The translations under genes and the position numbers were made by a program. A DNA stretch of 64,000 bases, taken from the NCBI GenBank assembly GCA_050250895.1, contig JBFWNU010000007.1, positions 64,001-128,000 of the forward strand. Direction: 5' to 3'. Positions within the stretch are counted from its first letter, which is position 1. Each line of letters starts with the position of its first letter. Of this stretch, positions 24,180 through 32,906 are shown piece after piece. This stretch comes from Vulcanimicrobiota bacterium (lineage in GTDB: Bacteria > Vulcanimicrobiota > Xenobia > Xenobiales > JADMJV01). The notes under the pieces were generated by a model. The model did no database searches, was not told the DNA's origin, and saw only the letters and a program-made list of their open reading frames with translations.

Positions 24180-25694
24180 GTGCTGTCCCCTGAGACGAAG
24201 GGCCCGAGCCTGAGAATTCCTTTCTGGCTCGGGCTTATTTTCTTTGTACTCGTCCTGCTGGCGCCACTCCCCGAGGGGATGACCCCGGCCGGCAAAAAGG
24301 TGTTGGCCGCCGCTTTTTTGATGGCCACCTGGTGGATCGGCGAGGCTTTGCCCATTCCTTGCACGGCCCTGGTGCCGCTGGCCCTCTTTCCTTTGATGGG
24401 AGTGATGAAGGCCGGCGATGTTGCGCCGAACTACGGCAACGAGAATATCTTTCTTTTCATGGGCGGGCTTTTCATGGCCATGGCCATGCAAAAGTGGAAT
24501 CTGCATCGTCGCATGGCCCTCGCCATCGTGGGCCTAAGCGGGCAGAAGCCCGGCTATCTGATCATGGGTTTCATGCTGGCCACGGGACTGATCTCGATGT
24601 GGATCTCGGATACGGCCACGGTGATGATGATGATGCCCATTGGTGTGGCCGTCATCATGCATTTCGAGGAGCACCAGAAGCTGCCCGAGCAGAAGCAGAA
24701 GGATTTTGCCGCCGCCATGATGCTCGGAATCGCCTATGCGGGGGTGATCGGGGGCATCGGCACGCTGATCGGCACCCCACCCAACCTGGTCTTCGCTGGC
24801 ACCGTGGCCAAACTGGTGCCGGACGCGCCCGAGATCGGGTTCGCCAAATGGATGATGGTGGGTGGAACGGTGACCATCACTTTCCTGCCTCTGGTGTGGG
24901 TCTATCTCACTCGCATCGCTTTCCAGATTCCCCTGGGTGACGTGGATGAGGGCACCGACCGACAAGATATGGTCAAGTCTCAACTGGCTCAACTGGGGCC
25001 GATGAAGAAGGGTGAGAAGATCACCCTGGCCGTGTTCTTGAGCGCCGCCCTGTTGTGGTTGACCAGGGGCGAATATCGCGGTGACGAGGTTCTGGCCCCT
25101 GGCTGGGCCCTGCTCTTTCCCAATCCCGACATGATTCACGATTCGACGGTGGCGATGTTGGCTGCCCTGGCCCTGTTCGTGATGACCGTCGACGGGGACC
25201 GGCGCGAGTATGTGCTCGATTGGGAATGGGCTCGCCGTATCCCCTGGCGCGTGTTGTTGCTCTTTGGGGGTGGGTTCGCCCTGGCTCACGCCTTCCAGGT
25301 GACCGAACTGGCCGATTGGATTGGCCGGCGGATCGCTTTTCTCGAGGGTCTCCCTGCCCCTTTGATGGTGGCGGTGGTTTGTTTCTTGATGACTTTTCTG
25401 ACCGAGGTTACCTCGAACACGGCCACCACCACGGTCATGATGCCCGTGCTGGCCACCGCCGGCCACACCATGGGGATCGATCCTCTACTGCTGATGATGC
25501 CGGCCGCCATGTCGGCTTCGTGCGCCTTCATGCTACCGGTGGCCACACCCGGTAACGCCATCGTCTTCGGCAGCGGGTATCTGACCATTCCCCAGATGGC
25601 CAAGGCAGGCTTCTGGCTCAATCTGGTGGGAGTAATCCTGATTACCCTCGTCACCATTCTGGTGGGCGTCCCGGTTTTTGGTTTGCGCTACTGA
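24180..25694 (+). CDS. SLC13/DASS-family sodium:dicarboxylate (or sulfate) symporter
   Basis: Many TM helices; 'WNLHRR.AL', 'SMWISDTAT', 'GTPPN', 'TEVTSNTAT', 'AFMLPVATP.NAIV'. Confidence 0.92.
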   Translation: MLSPETKGPSLRIPFWLGLIFFVLVLLAPLPEGMTPAGKKVLAAAFLMATWWIGEALPIPCTALVPLALFPLMGVMKAGDVAPNYGNENIFLFMGGLFMAMAMQKWNLHRRMALAIVGLSGQKPGYLIMGFMLATGLISMWISDTATVMMMMPIGVAVIMHFEEHQKLPEQKQKDFAAAMMLGIAYAGVIGGIGTLIGTPPNLVFAGTVAKLVPDAPEIGFAKWMMVGGTVTITFLPLVWVYLTRIAFQIPLGDVDEGTDRQDMVKSQLAQLGPMKKGEKITLAVFLSAALLWLTRGEYRGDEVLAPGWALLFPNPDMIHDSTVAMLAALALFVMTVDGDRREYVLDWEWARRIPWRVLLLFGGGFALAHAFQVTELADWIGRRIAFLEGLPAPLMVAVVCFLMTFLTEVTSNTATTTVMMPVLATAGHTMGIDPLLLMMPAAMSASCAFMLPVATPGNAIVFGSGYLTIPQMAKAGFWLNLVGVILITLVTILVGVPVFGLRY

Positions 25695-25708
25695 GGCTGG
25701 CGGTGGGT

Positions 25709-26389
25709 GCGGACGGGGGTGTAAACTGGAGTTTTCACGCGGACGTGGGCGTGAACTGGATTTTAACGCGGAGATCAAGGAGAGGACGCAGAGATCGCGG
25801 AGGGGTTGCAGGTTTGGGGGAGTAGGCTCTCTAGCGATTTTTATGGTTGAGGCCGGTGCGGCTGGAAGGTCGTTCCCTGATAGTTCCAGGCGCGGCCGGT
25901 GCCGAAGGACTCTGCGTTCTCCGCGATCTCAGCGGTTTATAAACGGGCGGGCGTGTTAACGCGGACGTGGGCGCGAACTGGATTTTGACGCGGAGATCAA
26001 GAGAGGACGCAGAGATCGTGGAGGGGTTGCAGGTTTGGGGGAGTAGGCTCTCTAGTGATTTTTATGGTTGAGGCCGGTGCGGCTGGGAGTTAGCGGTGCC
26101 TGACCCGCGTCGGTTACCGACCGGGACCGAGGCGCGGCTTGGCCCAGCCAGAGGCGGGCCACTTCCAGCTGGAAGTCGCGGCGGGTGTGCGGCGCACAAC
26201 CGGTCCCACGGTCGCCGCTGGCCCGAACCGAGGCCTCGGCCGGGGATTCGGCAGCACCCACGTACCACGCCGCCAAATCGGCCTCGGCGGGGCGGGGAGG
26301 TCGTTCCACCGTTGTTCAAGGCTTCAATGCGCGGCCGGCGCGCGCCGAAGGACTCCGCGTCTCTGAGCGGTTTTATAACGAGCGAGCGC
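25709..26389. repeat. Tandem copies of a ~220-bp non-coding repeat with internal inverted repeats
   Basis: Partial head at 25709-25740; copy 1 at 25737-25958; copy 2 at 25959-26389 with a ~205-bp insert after 26086. Shared core GCAGGTTTGGGGGAGTAGGCTCTCTAGYGATTTTTATGGT. Inverted repeat GAGATCGCGGAG (25791) / CTCCGCGATCTC (25919). Confidence 0.85.
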
Positions 26390-26405
26390 TCACCCTCCAG
26401 ACCAC

Positions 26406-26434
26406 TTGACATCCCCGGCCGTGTCCACTATTAT
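26406..26434 (+). promoter_or_regulatory. sigma70 promoter for tRNA-Ala
   Basis: TTGACA, 17 bp spacer, TATTAT, ending 10 nt before the tRNA. Confidence 0.8.
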
Positions 26435-26444
26435 TGCTGGGCGC

Positions 26445-26520
<76 letters not shown>

Positions 26521-26530
26521 AAATCAAACG

Positions 26531-26562
26531 AAGACAGGAGCAAACAGCTCCTGTTTTCATTT
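26531..26562 (+). terminator. Rho-independent terminator after tRNA-Ala
   Basis: ACAGGAGC-AAACA-GCTCCTGT followed by TTTCATTT. Confidence 0.7.
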
Positions 26563-26750
26563 CGTTCGATGTTTTTCCGGGCGCGTGGAGGAACTCTAGT
26601 ATTCTGGAAGAATACTCAAGCGTTATTTCCGAGGGTTTCCCTTGGAGTCGGAGTGGTGCTCCGGCAATGCGGCCCTCGCTGCAGAACTCGTTCGGGTGTG
26701 ATGTGGGCGCGACTAGAAAAGAATTATAAAGACTACGGGTAGGTGACTTT

Positions 26751-27044
26751 ATGGCATACCGGCCGTGCAGGTTTCGGAGTTCGGTGCTAGGCGTTTTTCA
26801 GTGCGAGAAGCACATGTTTCAGCATTCCTATCCGGAAATCTACAACGAACTCTACGAGTTTTGTCTTGAGAACGTTCCCGATCGATTTTGCGGATATGTC
26901 GATTTCGGTTTCAGTCTCGAAGGCGAGATGCCTAGAATTTTTATCAATTGTACGCATCCCTACCAGTCCCGTCCGCTGCGCAGTTTTCGGGACTGCATCG
27001 AGGAGTGCGATTACCACGATAAAGAGGGCGAGTCCCTCGGTTAG
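26751..27044 (+). CDS. Small Cys-rich protein (97 aa, 7 Cys), putative partner or substrate of the radical SAM enzyme
   Basis: AGGTGA RBS, protein-like composition, Cys at 6/18/38/47/67/82/86, 58 bp upstream of the rSAM gene. Confidence 0.7.
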   Translation: MAYRPCRFRSSVLGVFQCEKHMFQHSYPEIYNELYEFCLENVPDRFCGYVDFGFSLEGEMPRIFINCTHPYQSRPLRSFRDCIEECDYHDKEGESLG

Positions 27045-27102
27045 GCGCCTCACACACAGCGCCGCTACGGTCGGCGGTACTCAGACCCCTGGAGGAATCT
27101 GA

Positions 27103-28392
27103 ATGGCGGACGCGGCCAAGGCCCCTTTTGTGGGCCGTCGGGAATATTTCGGCTGTTTGATCTATGATCGGTCGAATAGCGATTATATTCCCTTCGATCA
27201 AGAGGCCACTGAAATCTTCGAGTTGAGCGTGGACCGCTCGCTCGATGAGGTCTATCGAGAACTGTCTGACTCGGTCACGCGCCAGTCTTTCGACACGTTC
27301 GTTCAGCTCTGCTCGAGCATCGGGCTGTTCGAGAACGGCACCTTCAAAGGCGTTTTTCTAGAAGACAAGACCCCGGCCGGCTTTTACCATCTCTCGGCAC
27401 CGACGCTGGTTTATCTTCAATTGACCCGCTACTGCAACCTGGCCTGTAAGCACTGCTGGGCCGAGGCTGGGGCGGCCCGCCCGCGCGAATTGACGATTCT
27501 CGAAGTTCGCAAACTGCTCGACCAGATGTCCGAGATGGGTGTCTATAAATTGCGTCTCGGTGGGGGAGAGCCCCTGGGCCGCGGCGACTGGTATGATATC
27601 GTCAAATACGCCAACGACCGTGGCATTCGAGCCAGCCTCTCCACCAACGCCACTATGGCTACCCGGGCTGTGGCCTCCAAAATTGGCGAGCTCGACATCG
27701 ACGAGATCAAGGTCAGTCTCGAGGCGGCCAGCGAGAAGAGCTACGACTATATCCGGGGCGAGCGATCCTATCGCAAGGCCATCCGCGGCATCAAGAACCT
27801 CAAAGAGCTGGCCAACGCTCCGGTCTATTTCCATACCGTTTTGCAGCGCGACAACCTGACCGAGATCCCGGCTCTGGTCAAGCAGGCCGAGAAGCATCAG
27901 GTCGATCGCATCGTTTTCGATGTCATCGTCGGGTCGGGGCGCGCCCGCGAAAACCAACGATTGCTGTTGACTCCAGAAGAGGCCAACAATGCCCTGGATC
28001 TGGCTCGCCGGATCGGTCAGACCAGCCGGGTCAAAGTCGAGGTGGCCAATCGGGTCCCGCCGCCCTATCAGAAGAAGCGAGTTTTCGAAGGCTTCGGCTC
28101 CGAAGGTGGACGACTGCATCTGCACGTCAACTCGGAAGGTGTGGTATCGGCCAGCGGTTTCGTGAGCGAGCTGCTGCCGGCGGGCAACATTCGTGACAAG
28201 TCTCTGCGCGAGATCTGGGAAGAAGGCCCCGGCTTCAAGAGCTTGCGAAGCAGCCCCGGCAACCAGGTCTGCAACAACTGCGATTACTTCCGCTCTTGCC
28301 GCGGTGGGTCGCGCTCGCGGACTTATGCTACTCTCGGGTCGCTAACCGAGCCCGATCCGATGTGCCTGGTGGCCAAAGAGGCTGTTCGTTGA
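27103..28392 (+). CDS. Radical SAM/SPASM-domain protein with N-terminal RRE(PqqD/MftB)-like domain
   Basis: C111xxxC115xxC118, 'GGEP', 'STN'; C-terminal CxxCx5C...DPMC; N-terminal 'RREYFGCLIYD...' followed by helices; GGAGG RBS. Confidence 0.9.
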   Translation: MADAAKAPFVGRREYFGCLIYDRSNSDYIPFDQEATEIFELSVDRSLDEVYRELSDSVTRQSFDTFVQLCSSIGLFENGTFKGVFLEDKTPAGFYHLSAPTLVYLQLTRYCNLACKHCWAEAGAARPRELTILEVRKLLDQMSEMGVYKLRLGGGEPLGRGDWYDIVKYANDRGIRASLSTNATMATRAVASKIGELDIDEIKVSLEAASEKSYDYIRGERSYRKAIRGIKNLKELANAPVYFHTVLQRDNLTEIPALVKQAEKHQVDRIVFDVIVGSGRARENQRLLLTPEEANNALDLARRIGQTSRVKVEVANRVPPPYQKKRVFEGFGSEGGRLHLHVNSEGVVSASGFVSELLPAGNIRDKSLREIWEEGPGFKSLRSSPGNQVCNNCDYFRSCRGGSRSRTYATLGSLTEPDPMCLVAKEAVR

Positions 28393-28586
28393 GCGAGTCG
28401 TCATTTTCTCTGACGCCGCGCGAAGAGGCCAGGCTTACGCTGCCGAACTGCCCCGGTTGCGATACGCCTCTCGAGGTGGCGGGGTTGGGTCTCAACGAAG
28501 AGACCACCTGTCCCCACTGCGGAGTCGTGATTTTGTTGGTTCGCATCGATGGGGTGCGAATGTTTCTGCGCGACGGCTGGACTTGA
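28389..28586 (+). CDS. Small zinc-ribbon protein (LysW-like CPxC...CPHC)
   Basis: TTG start overlaps the rSAM TGA (TTGA); 65 aa with 'CPGCDTPLEV...EETTCPHCG'. Confidence 0.65.
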   Translation: MSESSFSLTPREEARLTLPNCPGCDTPLEVAGLGLNEETTCPHCGVVILLVRIDGVRMFLRDGWT

Positions 28587-28688
28587 GCGGGCCGCCGATT
28601 CGAGGGTAAGCTCCCGGGCGTGTCGAAAATCTTTGATGGGGGCGCCGTTTGGCTTTGCCAGCGGCTTTGATGGAGTGAACCTGGCTGG

Positions 28689-30650
28689 ATGTTGGCAGCG
28701 CGCTGGTTGATCTACCTGGGAGGAGGGGTTATCGCCCTCCTCTACAGCTATTTCTCCGGCGGCACGGTGATCACCACCTCCATCTATCGACTGTTGTTCG
28801 TGTTGGCCTCGACCCTTGCCTATCTGAGCTATGTCTCTTACTTCGGCCAGGGCCGGCTACCTTTGCCCATGCGATTGGGTTTGATTTTTTGCGAGGTGGC
28901 TCTGGTGAGCCTGCTGGTGGCGCTTACCGGCGGCCTGGCCAGCCCGTTTGTCTCGCTGTTGTGGTTGCTGGTGATTCTCAATTCCGTCGATCATGGCGAG
29001 CAGCTCGGAGTGGCGGCCGCTTTGTTATGCTGTCTGGGACTGGGGGCCATGGCCCGCGGGATGGGAGTCTACTCTCCCTCGCAACTGGGCGGATTATGGT
29101 TGGGACTGGTCGCCATGGGAGCCCTGGGCTTTGTGCTCGGCGGTCGGCAAAGCGGCGGCGAAGCCAGCTACGGCGGTGATGCCAGTCGCGAGATCGACCG
29201 GGCCCACCGCATCGCTCGCCAGCAGTCACGCGAGCGTAAGGTTCGCGAAGAGCAGCTGTACTACGAGCGACGACGATTCGAGGGCCTGGTCGAGGTGGCT
29301 AATAGCCTGGCCAGTCTGCGCACCCGCGACGAGTTGCTCAGCCAGATTGTCGAGCGCGCGCTCGAGCAGATGGAAGTCGAGGCTTCGGCGGTGTTGCTGC
29401 TCGACGAAGAGAACCACCTGGTCGTCAGCGAGGCGCGGGGGGTCAGTATTCCCACCCGCCAGCGCCTGGAGGGCCCCGTGGGGGAATGTTTCCTCGGGCG
29501 AGTGCTTCAGACCGGAGACATCCTGACGTTCGACGAGAGCCAGACTCACGAGGTGCTGCATCACTATGGTGAACTGGGCGCCTTCTCCGAGGTGGTGCGT
29601 GGCTCGCACCAGGCCCTCAATCAGGGTTTCACCAATCGGGGCGAGACTTTTCGCAACTTCATCGTGGTGCCGCTCTTTACGTCTCAGGACCGCTTTTCGT
29701 TTGGTTTGCTCTTTGTGGCCAATCTGCGCTCGCGTGACTGTTACTCTTCCAATGATGTCGGCTACCTCCGGATTTTGGCCACCAACGCCGCCATCGCGCT
29801 GCGCAATCTCGAGGCCAAATCGCGCATTGAGCAGACGCACTTTGAGATGATCCAGGCCCTGGCCCAGGCCATCGAAGCCAAGGACCTTTACACCAGCAAC
29901 CACGTCGGACGCGTGCGTGATCTTTCGGTTCGCATCGCCGAGGTGATGGGATTGGCCCGGGAAGAGGTGCGCGAGATCGGGATCGCGGCCACCCTCCATG
30001 ATGTTGGCAAGATCTCGACCCCCGATCGCATTCTCTCTAAACCTGGGGCGCTCGATGCCGAGGAATACGAGACGATGAAGGCTCACGCCGAGAACGGAGC
30101 CAACATTCTCAAGAACATCAAGAGCCTGCCCCCGTCCGTCCATCGTATGGTGCTGCACCACCACGAGCGTTGGGACGGCAAAGGTTATCCTCGCGGCCTG
30201 GTCGGCGACCAGATCCCCCTGGGAGCCCAGATCATCTCGGTGGCTGACTGCTACGACGCCATGACCTGGGACCGTCCGTATCGCCGAGGCTTCTCCAAGG
30301 AGGAGGCTCTCAAGCGCATGGAACATGGCTGCGGCACCCAGTTCAACTCGAAGATCCTGTGTGCTTTCTTTGCGATGTGTGGCTATCAGCCACGTCACTC
30401 TCCCGAGGCGGTTGCTTCCTTCGCCCAGACGAGCCAATCGTTGCAATTGGAGCGGCCGCCCACGTTCAGTTTTGCCACAATGTCCGAGGTTCCCGAAATC
30501 GGGGTTTATCCTGGATTTCAGGAAGGTGGCACGCCGGCCGCCTCGGCCGGGCGCGCAAATGCGGGCTCGACGAAGGAAAAGCGCCGGGTTCTTCAAATCG
30601 AAACCAAAAAGCCCTCGGTCCTACATATCGAACCCGACAAGGAGTCTTGA
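28689..30650 (+). CDS. Membrane-bound GAF + HD-GYP domain phosphodiesterase
   Basis: About 5 N-terminal TMs, GAF domain, 'KD.YT..H..RV', 'LHDVGK', 'HHERWDGKGYP', 'VADCYDAMT..RPYR'. Confidence 0.92.
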   Translation: MLAARWLIYLGGGVIALLYSYFSGGTVITTSIYRLLFVLASTLAYLSYVSYFGQGRLPLPMRLGLIFCEVALVSLLVALTGGLASPFVSLLWLLVILNSVDHGEQLGVAAALLCCLGLGAMARGMGVYSPSQLGGLWLGLVAMGALGFVLGGRQSGGEASYGGDASREIDRAHRIARQQSRERKVREEQLYYERRRFEGLVEVANSLASLRTRDELLSQIVERALEQMEVEASAVLLLDEENHLVVSEARGVSIPTRQRLEGPVGECFLGRVLQTGDILTFDESQTHEVLHHYGELGAFSEVVRGSHQALNQGFTNRGETFRNFIVVPLFTSQDRFSFGLLFVANLRSRDCYSSNDVGYLRILATNAAIALRNLEAKSRIEQTHFEMIQALAQAIEAKDLYTSNHVGRVRDLSVRIAEVMGLAREEVREIGIAATLHDVGKISTPDRILSKPGALDAEEYETMKAHAENGANILKNIKSLPPSVHRMVLHHHERWDGKGYPRGLVGDQIPLGAQIISVADCYDAMTWDRPYRRGFSKEEALKRMEHGCGTQFNSKILCAFFAMCGYQPRHSPEAVASFAQTSQSLQLERPPTFSFATMSEVPEIGVYPGFQEGGTPAASAGRANAGSTKEKRRVLQIETKKPSVLHIEPDKES

Positions 30651-30652
30651 AC

Positions 30653-31630
30653 GTGAGTTTCGAGCAGAACATACCAGACCAGCTTCTCCAGGCCCTTCGC
30701 GCTAGTCGAAGGGTATTGCTGGCTGCCCACATTGGTCTCGACGGTGACCATCTCGGCTCGATGCTCGCCCTTCGTAAGGCGCTCGAGATCCTGGGGAAAG
30801 AAGTGGTGGCCTATCTGCCCGAAACGGTCCCGCCCAACTATCATTTCTTGCTCGACCTCGACAAGCTTTCGCCAGAATTGCCCGGCCACGACTTCGATAC
30901 CATCATTACCCTCGAGTGCCCTAACGTAGCCCGACTGCCGGCCGGGGTCGAGGTCAAGTCGACCCCCGCCACCGTGATCAATCTCGATCATCATCCCGAC
31001 AACGAGATGTATGGTCAGCACATCTGGGTCGAGCCCCAGGCGGCTGCTCTAGGCGAGATGATTTGCGACCTCATCGAAAGACTCGACGTGCCGCTGGATC
31101 GGGCGATGGCTATGGGCCTCTATGTGGCCATTCTGACCGATACAGGCTCGTTTCAATACTCGCGAGTGCGCCCGGCCACCCATCGCCGGCTGGCTCGTTT
31201 GCTCGAGTTCAATTTGCCAACCGATCTGATCGCTCGTTCGATCTACCGTCAAAGCCGGCCCGAAGTGCTCAAGTTGCTCGGGCATGTGCTCACCGACGTA
31301 AGCGTTACCGACAACGGCCAGGTTGCCTGGGCCGAGATCCCTTTCGAGCGGATGCAATCGTATGGGGTCCGGCCCGAAGATACACAGTTTTTCATCGATG
31401 ATGTGGATCGGGTGGCCGGTCCCGAGGTGGTCACGCTCTTTCGCGAACTCGGCGACGGGCGCATCAAGGTCAGTCTTCGTTCCAAGGACGCGCCGATCAA
31501 CGCCGTGGCGGCCAAGTTCGGCGGGGGAGGGCACGCCAAAGCCGCCGGTTGCGTGGTCAAAGGCGACTTGAGCGAAGTGCGGGCCATGGTGGTGGAGGCG
31601 GTCACCGAAAGTCTGCGGGTAAATGCCTGA
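30653..31630 (+). CDS. nrnA: DHH-family phosphoesterase (NrnA-like nanoRNase/PAP phosphatase)
   Basis: 'H...DGD..GS', 'NLDHH', 'TDTGSF', DHHA1 'GGGGHAKAAG'; AAGGAG 8 nt before GTG 30653. Confidence 0.88.
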   Translation: MSFEQNIPDQLLQALRASRRVLLAAHIGLDGDHLGSMLALRKALEILGKEVVAYLPETVPPNYHFLLDLDKLSPELPGHDFDTIITLECPNVARLPAGVEVKSTPATVINLDHHPDNEMYGQHIWVEPQAAALGEMICDLIERLDVPLDRAMAMGLYVAILTDTGSFQYSRVRPATHRRLARLLEFNLPTDLIARSIYRQSRPEVLKLLGHVLTDVSVTDNGQVAWAEIPFERMQSYGVRPEDTQFFIDDVDRVAGPEVVTLFRELGDGRIKVSLRSKDAPINAVAAKFGGGGHAKAAGCVVKGDLSEVRAMVVEAVTESLRVNA

Positions 31631-32906
31631 GAACCCTACGTTCGCCATTCATACCCTCGGTTGCCGCGCCAATCAGGCCGAGTCCGAGCGAATGCGCGAT
31701 ATCCTCGTCTCGGCCGGCTTTGCCGAGGTAGCCTTCGGGCAACCTGCCGACTGCCAGGTGGTCAATACCTGCACCGTTACCCGCGAAGCCGACCGCAAGT
31801 CGCGCCAGATGATCCGTCGGGCTCTGCGGTTAAGCCCGACCGTAGTGGCCACTGGTTGTGCCGTGGCCGACCGGGGCGGAGTCAAGAATCTGCCGGGCAC
31901 GGCCCTGCGCTTGCCCCCGGAGCGGACCGAAGAGTTGTTGAGCTTGCTCGGTGCCGAGCGTTGTCCGGCCACCGAACTCGTCGAGAGAGAGACGCTGGCG
32001 ACACGCACCAGGGCGCTGTTGAAGGTGCAGGATGGCTGCGACCAGTTTTGCAGTTTCTGTATCGTGCCGTACGTGCGGGGCCGCAGTCGCAGCCGGCCGG
32101 TGGCCGAAGTGGTGGAAGAGGCTCGGCGTCTCGAGCAGCAGGGTTATCAAGAGATCGTGCTGACCGGCATTCATCTCTCCATCTGGGGCCACGACCTGGA
32201 GGGCGCGCCGGACCTGGCCGACCTGGTCGAGGCCATTTTGACCGCCACCGAGAGGCCTCGCATTCGCTTGAGCTCGGTCGAGCCCGATCGCTTCCCGGCT
32301 CGGATATTCGAGTTGATGACCCAGGCCTCGGGCCGCCTTTGCCCCCATCTGCATCTGGTGCTTCAGCACGCCAGTGACGTCGTGCTCGAGCGCATGCGAA
32401 GAGGCTACACGCTGGCCCACTACCGGGGCCTGGTAGACGAGTTTTTCCAGCGCGTGCCCGACGCCTGCCTGACCACCGACCTGATGGTGGGCTTTCCCGG
32501 CGAGACCGACCAGGACTTCGCCTGCCTGATGGATTACGTGCGCCAAACACCCTTTTATCGCGTGCACGTATTCCCTTACAGCCTGAGACCGGGGACGACC
32601 GCCTCGAAGTTTTCCGACCAGGTGGAACCGGCCGTCAAGAACCATCGGCGCGATCGCTTGCTGCGTCTGGTCGAGAAAAAACGCGTCGAATTCTTGCGCG
32701 CTAACTATGGACGCACGGCTCGAGTGCTGGTGGAAACGGTCGAGCGGCCAGGTTGGGTGAAGGGTGTGAGCCACAACTATCTCAACGTGGCTTTTCGGGG
32801 CGGGCCGCGGCTGCTGGGTCGGACTCTCGACGTTCGCCTGGAACGGCGCCGTAAAGACCTTCTGGTGGGCAGCCTGGTGGGGGAGGACTTCCCGCGCCCC
32901 CATTGA
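31623..32906 (+). CDS. mtaB: tRNA t6A37 methylthiotransferase MtaB
   Basis: 'TLGCRANQAE', 'NTCTVT..AD.KSR', 'KVQDGCDQFCSFC', 'LTGIHL', 'HVFPYS.RPGT', C-terminal TRAM domain. Confidence 0.9.
   Translation: MPENPTFAIHTLGCRANQAESERMRDILVSAGFAEVAFGQPADCQVVNTCTVTREADRKSRQMIRRALRLSPTVVATGCAVADRGGVKNLPGTALRLPPERTEELLSLLGAERCPATELVERETLATRTRALLKVQDGCDQFCSFCIVPYVRGRSRSRPVAEVVEEARRLEQQGYQEIVLTGIHLSIWGHDLEGAPDLADLVEAILTATERPRIRLSSVEPDRFPARIFELMTQASGRLCPHLHLVLQHASDVVLERMRRGYTLAHYRGLVDEFFQRVPDACLTTDLMVGFPGETDQDFACLMDYVRQTPFYRVHVFPYSLRPGTTASKFSDQVEPAVKNHRRDRLLRLVEKKRVEFLRANYGRTARVLVETVERPGWVKGVSHNYLNVAFRGGPRLLGRTLDVRLERRRKDLLVGSLVGEDFPRPH

Follow-up and report, generated by a model that had tools for sequence, protein, structure and literature searches.

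A 64,000-nucleotide stretch of the genome of a Vulcanimicrobiota bacterium of the Xenobia (assembly GCA_050250895.1, contig JBFWNU010000007.1, positions 64,001 to 128,000 of the forward strand), referred to here as the window, encodes a radical S-adenosylmethionine (SAM) protein, hereafter the window rSAM. Its C-terminal SPASM domain keeps the four cysteine ligands of one auxiliary iron-sulfur cluster (AuxII) and presents serines at the three motif positions assigned to the other (AuxI). This pattern is conserved, has a stepwise origin and is accompanied by invariant radical SAM (RS) cluster and AuxII cysteines in the nearest relatives of the protein. The analysis outlines a lineage-conserved, single-copy radical SAM protein that combines an RRE-like domain with a SPASM fold and that most probably carries two clusters, RS and AuxII, its AuxI site having apparently been dismantled and taken over by conserved serines.

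Residue pattern and architecture of the window rSAM

Reading of the DNA identifies the serine codons as TCC (28099-28101) for S333, AGC (28153-28155) for S351 and TCG (28309-28311) for S403, and places TGC codons for C390, C393, C399 and C421 at 28270, 28279, 28297 and 28363. G346 is present four residues ahead of S351, and the overall spacing is S-x12-G-x4-S ... C-x2-C-x5-C-x3-S ... C. The AuxI region is free of cysteines, with serine at positions 333, 351 and 403, glycine at 335 and leucine at 340, and the only cysteines of the protein are C18, C70 and the RS and AuxII ligands. A phmmer search aligned residues 97-423 to PqqE (6c8v, E 1.6e-20) with S351 and S403 facing PqqE cysteines, and the columns of S333 and S403 are occupied by cysteine in orthologues at 73-74% identity. 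Because these two lines of evidence agree, the SPASM register can be considered sound.

With codons read directly and the register checked against PqqE and cysteine-bearing orthologues, the serine/cysteine pattern and spacing described in an initial annotation of this gene proved exact. Its attribution of motif cysteines 1, 2 and 6 to AuxI and of 3, 4, 5 and 7 to AuxII agrees with the assignment for AhbD in the cited portion of PMC10452713, where C256, C274 and C324 (plus C223) bind AuxI and C312, C315, C321 and C342 bind AuxII. By its sequence, the window protein would be an AuxII-only SPASM-fold radical SAM protein. Where a SPASM domain with two auxiliary clusters has seven or eight cysteines, only the four of AuxII are found, and the protein is the opposite case to a Twitch domain, its CX2CX5C...C part being complete and its AuxI ligands gone.

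Pfam matches in the window rSAM encompass Radical_SAM (PF04055; 87.7 bits against a cut-off of 29.5) and SPASM (PF13186; 27.0 bits against 21.5), and the GGGEP motif is conserved across its branch of the alignment. The structure prediction proposed with the initial annotation returned a full SPASM fold: the AlphaFold2 (AF2) model, based on a 29-orthologue alignment and with a mean predicted local distance difference test score (pLDDT) of 90.8, comprises an N-terminal three-strand/three-helix domain at residues 9-72 (strands 9-14, 17-22 and 27-32; helices 33-42, 47-54 and 60-72), a partial TIM barrel, the SPASM hairpin (strands 339-342 and 347-349) and C-terminal helices. The best Foldseek matches of this model were to full-length SuiB (template modelling score, TM, 0.71-0.74), followed by SkfB, CteB, PqqE and anSME, and phmmer aligned residues 17-284 to residues 24-291 of SkfB. 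The PqqD-like RRE family (PF05402) gave no Pfam match in the protein at E <= 0.01. Taken together, the sequence and the model suggest an architecture of the RRE-bearing peptide maturase type, with an N-terminal domain that is RRE-like.

No NCBIfam equivalog reached its own cut-off with the window rSAM. The best match was TIGR04053 (169.4 bits against a cut-off of 395), with MftC (TIGR03962) at 167.2 bits against 265 and the PqqE model at 124 against 381; the alignments to the MftC and PqqE models span residues 96-426. The NirJ, NirJ1, NirJ2, AhbC and AhbD models (TIGR04051, TIGR04054, TIGR04055, TIGR04545 and TIGR04546) scored 131-155 bits (E 1e-38 to 1e-45) against cut-offs of 500-650, and the TIGR04347 'pseudo-SAM/SPASM' model 146 bits (E 2e-42) against 525.

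Orthologue patterns and the stepwise loss of AuxI ligands

Relatives were gathered with a word-indexed search (108 proteins) and an exhaustive HMMER search (the best 150 of 41,229), and 255 proteins were aligned to the family profile. The commonest pattern, found in 114 of them, is fully canonical, with RS CCC, AuxI CCC and AuxII CCCC. At motif positions C1, C2 and C6, the combination C-S-C was observed in 27 proteins, and S-S-S in 18 with an intact RS motif and in seven with a degenerate one (NQC in four, SQC in two and SHC in one); further combinations were V-S-S (seven), S-S-D (four) and S-D-D (four).

A closer set of 89 relatives was drawn from both searches: the indexed one contributed P0001-P0067, and the exhaustive one its first 22 additional proteins, P0109-P0130. 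Dropping three rows without a letter at the key columns left 86 full-length orthologues. The S-S-S pattern is present in 25 of these, all of which retain the AuxII quartet CCCC, and their RS motif is CCC in 18 and degenerate (SQC, NQC or SHC) in the other seven. AuxII is lost in no orthologue that is complete at the AuxII columns, and it therefore stands out as the indispensable site of the family.

A second group of 35 orthologues keeps C333 and C403 and lacks C351 (C-S-C in 24, C-T-C in six, C-N-C in three, and C-G-C and C-A-C in one each). All 35 carry a cysteine at position 335, which is glycine (nine) or alanine (three) in the 12 canonical C-C-C rows and cysteine in none of them. This perfect covariation suggests that an AuxI ligand was relocated from C351 to C335. 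Cys340, a leucine in the window, is present in 10 of the 12 canonical rows and in 21 of the 25 S-S-S rows. Given the Cys335/Cys340 pattern across the 86 orthologues, the family would appear to ligate AuxI through either of two sets, 333/340/351/403 or 333/335/340/403. The serine at 351 would then belong to an old ligand swap and not to the loss of AuxI, and the C340 kept in those 21 S-S-S proteins would be a relic of the cluster. Residue 335 in the S-S-S proteins is glutamate (20), glycine (three) or aspartate (two). In the window, the codons at the two covarying positions are 28105-28107 (residue 335) and 28153-28155 (residue 351).

The order of these changes was examined on a quick IQ-TREE reconstruction of 66 rows, comprising the window protein, 44 of 46 proteins derived from related loci (two, shorter than 380 aa, were left off) and 21 chosen database proteins, three of them distant outgroups. 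The program flagged several long branches; the nesting of the S-S-S proteins lies on short, well-supported ones. C351 is missing throughout a 48-row clade (Shimodaira-Hasegawa-like approximate likelihood ratio test, SH-aLRT, 99), within which C-S-C and C-G-C rows are basal. Inside it, a 24-row group (support 92) unites S-S-C and S-S-D rows with the S-S-S clade, whose 17 rows include the window protein (SH-aLRT 100), and eight rows inside the S-S-S clade (support 90) also lack C111 and C115. The sister clade of 15 rows mixes C-T-C, C-S-C and canonical C-C-C rows, and at least two joint changes at positions 335 and 351 must therefore have taken place on the tree. The nesting shows a stepwise loss of the AuxI ligands, in which S351 arose first, with C335 compensating, and C333, C335 and C403 were lost later through S-S-C and S-S-D states.

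The initial annotation had described a coordinated replacement of the three cysteines, and this part of it does not hold, since S351 is the older change, compensated by C335 (35 of 35 against 0 of 12), and C333 and C403 were lost later. Its contention that the serines are not a single sequencing error is borne out by their recurrence in 25 orthologues, and the homologue alignment it had proposed as a check reveals the three serines to be jointly conserved in a single clade, which is not the signature of recent decay.

The rSAM gene is under purifying selection and is not decaying. Nucleotide differences between the window gene and its counterpart at locus L001 number 62, 31 and 243 at the three codon positions, and very similar values separate the RS-less L020 from the RS-intact L012 (65, 33 and 239) and the RS-intact pair L012 and L014 (66, 33 and 251). 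An artefact, whether an error in sequencing or assembly or a decaying pseudogene, can be regarded as refuted: the serines are specified by three separate codons, one of which would need two changes to encode cysteine; the frame of 429 codons is intact; the same pattern recurs in 25 independent 90%-identity clusters; divergence is dominated by third positions; and a DNA contig from another sequencing run covers the gene at at least 95% identity.

The genome of the window (9.5 Mb, 99.6% complete) encodes one orthologue, the next radical SAM match being 31% identical. In a sample of 301 genomes of the phylum, 61 gave an orthologue at E <= 1e-60; the two large families f15 (0 of 207) and f20 (0 of 22) gave none. 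Records for the 46 related loci are labelled Xenobia, Vulcanimicrobiota or Eremiobacterota, and some are mislabelled as Burkholderiales or Armatimonadetes.

The RS-less subclade (SQC, NQC or SHC) is formed by L020 (5743-7020 of its locus), P0031, P0033, P0037, P0039, P0040, P0042 and P0043. It has the appearance of a natural 'pseudo-SAM' group in which AuxII and the gene cassette persist and purifying selection remains normal.

The nesting of RS-less proteins within the S-S-S clade indicates that clusters became less necessary, rather than that the chemistry is new, and it provides the basis for a reading in which the family follows a pseudoenzyme trajectory. A three-cluster maturase would here have become a non-radical binding or scaffold protein for one or more small partners, the RS cysteines of the window would be a relic, and the loss of AuxI would reflect the end of catalysis, not altered catalysis. 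The losses are indeed nested, AuxI ligands first and C111 and C115 afterwards (the eight tree rows, or seven of the 25 S-S-S orthologues), and the glycine ahead of the GGE motif has become Asp or Glu in six of seven RS-less rows. Moreover, L020 retains the complete cassette formed by the rSAM gene and the two small genes that flank it, up97 and zn65 (Table 1), under purifying selection equal to that of RS-intact pairs, and its genome (G092) contains a single match at E <= 1e-60, on the same contig as its up97. However, loss of the RS cysteines is limited to one subclade, and all three, together with GGGEP, persist in 18 of the 25 S-S-S orthologues, including ones as little as 57% identical to the window protein, a sign that SAM chemistry is still selected for in the branch of the window. 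We hence regard the pseudoenzyme reading as unlikely, albeit as the foremost competitor of the two-cluster enzyme.

Small flanking genes and their neighbourhood

The rSAM gene lies between two small open reading frames (ORFs) on the same strand, up97 and zn65, whose coordinates are collected in Table 1 together with those of the rSAM features.

Table 1. Coordinates in the window of the rSAM gene, its sequence features and its two small neighbours.
Feature	Position	Strand	Remarks
rSAM gene	27103..28392	+	429-aa ORF; RRE-like, radical SAM and SPASM-fold domains; Pfam, AF2, Foldseek
RRE-like N-terminal domain, ~95 aa	27103..27387	+	Three strands, then three helices; holds C18 and C70
RS cluster motif C111-x3-C115-x2-C118	27433..27456	+	Intact
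SPASM beta-hairpin	28099..28155	+	Putative former AuxI ligand positions S333, G335, L340, G346, S351
C390-x2-C393-x5-C399-x3-S403	28270..28311	+	Three AuxII ligands, then Ser at AuxI position C6
C421	28363..28365	+	Fourth AuxII ligand, motif cysteine 7
up97	26751..27044	+	97-aa protein, 58 nt upstream of rSAM; candidate partner
zn65	28389..28586	+	65-aa CxxC...CxxC zinc-ribbon protein; ORF, homologues, weak Pfam Zn_ribbon_LysW

The upstream gene, up97, is 88-100% identical across 28 loci in which the rSAM protein is only 39-85% identical; at a 29th locus (L008) only its last 21 residues are present, at a contig end. Substitutions fall almost solely at third codon positions (for example 0, 0 and 54 at the three positions), the length is always about 97 aa, and seven cysteines and three histidines are invariant in 18 sequences. 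Pfam and NCBIfam searches gave no match for up97, and an Atlas feature search gave no usable one. Its AF2 model is poor (pLDDT 49), and complex prediction with the rSAM protein scored 0.00 against a mark of 0.32, the fold of up97 being itself uncertain in that prediction, so that the score speaks neither for nor against an interaction. The possibility that up97 is an RNA gene was ruled out by the third-position substitutions and by the lack of any Rfam match other than a tRNA in 25600-28700.

Among the 301 genomes of the phylum, up97 was detected in 63, in the same families as rSAM and again in none of the genomes of f15 (0 of 207) and f20 (0 of 22); these co-occurrence counts include kin and are not independent. 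Several large genomes have two copies, and the window's own genome holds its second at G000:C1:1457297-1457587 (L055 4998-5288). Four genomes that are at least 94% complete (G006, G017, G026 and G030) encode up97 and no rSAM at E <= 1e-60, a distribution that bears on whether up97 could be an obligate rSAM substrate. The neighbouring up97 can be put forward as a candidate partner and as the second-best candidate substrate.

The downstream gene, zn65, begins with a TTG start codon that overlaps the rSAM stop codon, and would thus be translationally coupled to rSAM, as a candidate partner or substrate. It was found in 22 of the 46 related loci, each with an rSAM protein at least 64% identical to that of the window. 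The four cysteines and a C-terminal RDGWT are invariant in 28 homologues, eight of which match Pfam Zn_ribbon_LysW (best E 9.8e-6, below the family threshold). The Atlas model of zn65 (pLDDT 0.58) resembles LysW-like clusters with TM 0.58-0.63. Similarity to the LysW amino-group carrier, as judged from these matches and this model, is a lead and would not amount to membership. In two loci with canonical C-C-C orthologues, L038 and L040, a different small protein lies directly downstream of rSAM (L038 7303-7584; L040 7281-7544); it has 87-93 aa, four cysteines and an acidic C-terminal tail, and may be the counterpart of zn65 there.

The cysteine-rich nature of both neighbours is relevant to the proposal, made in the initial annotation, that a cluster or its ligands might be supplied in trans. 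AuxI or another metal centre would still be built, with ligands from up97, zn65, C18/C70 or non-cysteine residues. The invariant cysteines and histidines of up97 and the translational coupling of zn65 are in keeping with this idea, and a single clade combines up97 adjacency with a cysteine at position 18 and the lack of one at 351. That correspondence is, however, a distributional coincidence deriving from one event on the tree, and both up97 and C18 also accompany a putative four-cysteine AuxI site, in C-S-C rows with C335 and C340. Furthermore, other lineages have up97 with no rSAM next to it, and the gradual decay to one and then no cysteines is what would be expected of an abandoned site. 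In Aeropyrum pernix AhbD, one Glu and two Ser stand in place of the AuxI cysteines, and the model described in the cited portion of PMC10452713 presents them as a hydrogen-bond network, perhaps bonded to one another, and not as a metal site. A metal centre still assembled at the old AuxI site thus seems highly improbable.

The gene order in the window runs NusG, ribosomal protein L1, a Na/sulfate symporter, tRNA-Ala, up97, rSAM and zn65, followed by a membrane GAF/HD-GYP protein, a DHH/DHHA1 phosphoesterase, a MiaB-like methylthiotransferase and AccD, and is largely retained in related loci. Because the flanks are housekeeping genes in conserved order, adjacency constitutes weak evidence of partnership. 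Conserved order was likewise rejected as proof of an operon, given that NusG, L1, tRNA-Ala, DHH, MiaB-like and AccD genes share in it. No noteworthy terminator-like site was identified at the junctions between up97, rSAM and zn65.

Several further features of the neighbourhood were recorded. The tRNA-Ala gene (26445-26520) is preceded by a promoter-like site at 26406-26434 (11 of 12 matches) and followed by a terminator with a 12-bp stem at 26530-26558, and the downstream genes in conserved order include the membrane-anchored GAF/HD-GYP protein (28689-30650) and the MiaB/RimO-like protein (31623-32906; UPF0004 and Radical_SAM). Contigs from RNA libraries of three metatranscriptomic wastewater runs, belonging to two studies, match 26640-26955 and 27017-27285 at 95-100% identity and low depth. 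The first interval takes in the 5' end of up97 and the sequence ahead of it, the second the 5' end of rSAM and its junction with up97, and one contig bridges the intergenic region. Such contigs demonstrate neither transcription nor its level, and the parts they leave uncovered are uninformative.

Proposed activity and comparison with known systems

We favour the reading of the window rSAM as an enzyme with an RS cluster and AuxII, from a vertically inherited RRE-rSAM-SPASM family in which AuxI was re-ligated at first and later given up in the family-level clade of the window. As such, it would still cleave SAM and take a hydrogen atom from a substrate, peptide or protein, that is bound by the RRE-like domain, with zn65 as the best candidate substrate and up97 as the second. 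With no cluster beside the active site, the substrate radical would not be oxidised or ligated by AuxI as it is in anSME and the sactisynthases, and would have to be resolved through hydrogen return, proton-coupled electron return or long-range transfer to AuxII. In anSME, some 25 Å or more separate AuxII from the RS cluster, with AuxI between the two, and because of this distance chemistry that needs a cluster beside the substrate radical appears unlikely in the window rSAM. The enzyme type would be that of NirJ, with one auxiliary cluster on CX2CX5CX20-21C, and a NirJ-like quench or a redox-neutral outcome would be the more likely one. AuxII may be kept chiefly as a staple of the C-terminal SPASM helices, and it may also relay electrons at the protein surface.

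Several observations weigh against this proposal. The cluster content of the window rSAM is deduced from its residues, and the argument that AuxII would be too far away draws on anSME distances and not on the window model. Seven of the 25 S-S-S orthologues lack C111 and C115 and are as constrained as the rest (L020 and L012 compared with L012 and L014); part of the selected function must therefore be independent of SAM cleavage, and this clade weakens the case for the window rSAM being an active enzyme. The candidate substrates are affected as well. None of 18 up97 loci in other lineages or representing second copies, L055 among them, has an rSAM orthologue within 5 kb, and zn65 was not found beside the gut-clade rSAM orthologues in the loci examined.

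A broader reading would take the family as the full stepwise conversion of a three-cluster RRE-type maturase, through proteins with a swapped AuxI ligand and proteins with no AuxI to proteins with no RS cluster. The constant function would be a partnership with the LysW-like zn65 carrier and/or with up97, not peptide cross-linking. As a possibility, a cofactor would be built or handled on the carrier C-terminus, as by MftC on MftA, and AuxII would be the sole indispensable metal site. We deem this conversion, with the partnership it entails, quite unlikely.

Under the favoured two-cluster reading, the orthologous family amounts to a natural experiment on the roles of the two SPASM clusters, set in a conserved gene context. 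Its members span a canonical AuxI, a presumably relocated AuxI ligand, no AuxI, and neither AuxI nor RS, and the series supplies ready natural variants for spectroscopy. AuxII would be indispensable, for structural or redox reasons, and AuxI dispensable, which fits NirJ and some AhbDs and would extend their case to the RRE-bearing maturase-type architecture.

The overall three-domain architecture and fold of the window rSAM are common to SuiB, CteB, SkfB, MftC and PqqE. SuiB, CteB, MftC and PqqE have both auxiliary clusters, and SkfB, a Twitch protein, retains the AuxI-side cluster, whereas the window rSAM keeps the ligands of AuxII alone. The gene context also differs from that of MftC, the neighbours in the window being up97, zn65, HD-GYP and DHH proteins, without the pairing of mftA and mftB.

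A closer match to the residue pattern is provided by TIGR04053-named proteins (P0091, P0093 and P0094), which have non-cysteine residues at C1, C2 and C6, retain four AuxII cysteines and share C-GGSRSR with the window rSAM. These proteins, however, lack the N-terminal RRE-like domain and are 27% identical over 75% of the query, and since the window's own family still has cysteine-bearing members, the loss of AuxI must have been independent in the two. Literature searches, within the library covered, returned nothing on TIGR04053, a family of unknown function, and, as judged by titles and abstracts, nothing on the window rSAM among reports on radical SAM proteins of Xenobia or Eremiobacterota. 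TIGR04347 is a named precedent within the SPASM family for loss of the RS motif, judged from the family name only, and resembles the nested RS-less subclade; the window rSAM, in contrast, keeps CX3CX2C.

YydG combines the RS cluster with one C-terminal cluster, as described in the cited portion of a review (PMC5682303), which leaves unstated whether that cluster is AuxI-like or AuxII-like; the comparison is one of descriptions. In YydG the hydrogen donor is a cysteine of the enzyme itself; the window rSAM has no spare cysteine beyond C18 and C70.

In NirJ, AhbC and AhbD, as in the window rSAM, the radical SAM core precedes a C-terminal domain of the SPASM/Twitch type. The window protein differs in that it has an additional RRE-like N-terminal domain of about 95 aa, has no tetrapyrrole genes nearby and scores far below the family cut-offs. 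According to the cited portion of PMC12505453, NirJ has one auxiliary [4Fe-4S] cluster, established by Mössbauer spectroscopy, on four cysteines with the spacing CX2CX5CX20-21C, and the arrangement of the predicted AuxII ligands in the window rSAM, C390-x2-C393-x5-C399-x21-C421, fits this spacing. The identical motif suggests that the auxiliary cluster of NirJ occupies the AuxII site. Similarly, the cited portion of PMC10452713 notes that the full motif is missing from the AhbDs of non-methanogenic archaea, in which Glu and two Ser take the places of the three AuxI cysteines, and that 'not all AhbDs ... contain the AuxI cluster'. An AuxII-only SPASM-type enzyme is thus not new, with precedents in NirJ, some AhbDs and TIGR04053-named proteins. 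The notion of an inverse Twitch put forward in the initial annotation stands insofar as the protein is AuxII-only by sequence, and falls insofar as these precedents make it neither a new kind of protein nor a new enzyme class. What the Xenobia family adds to these systems is the putative ligand swap, a stepwise series ending in loss of the RS motif, and two unstudied proteins, up97 and the LysW-like zn65.

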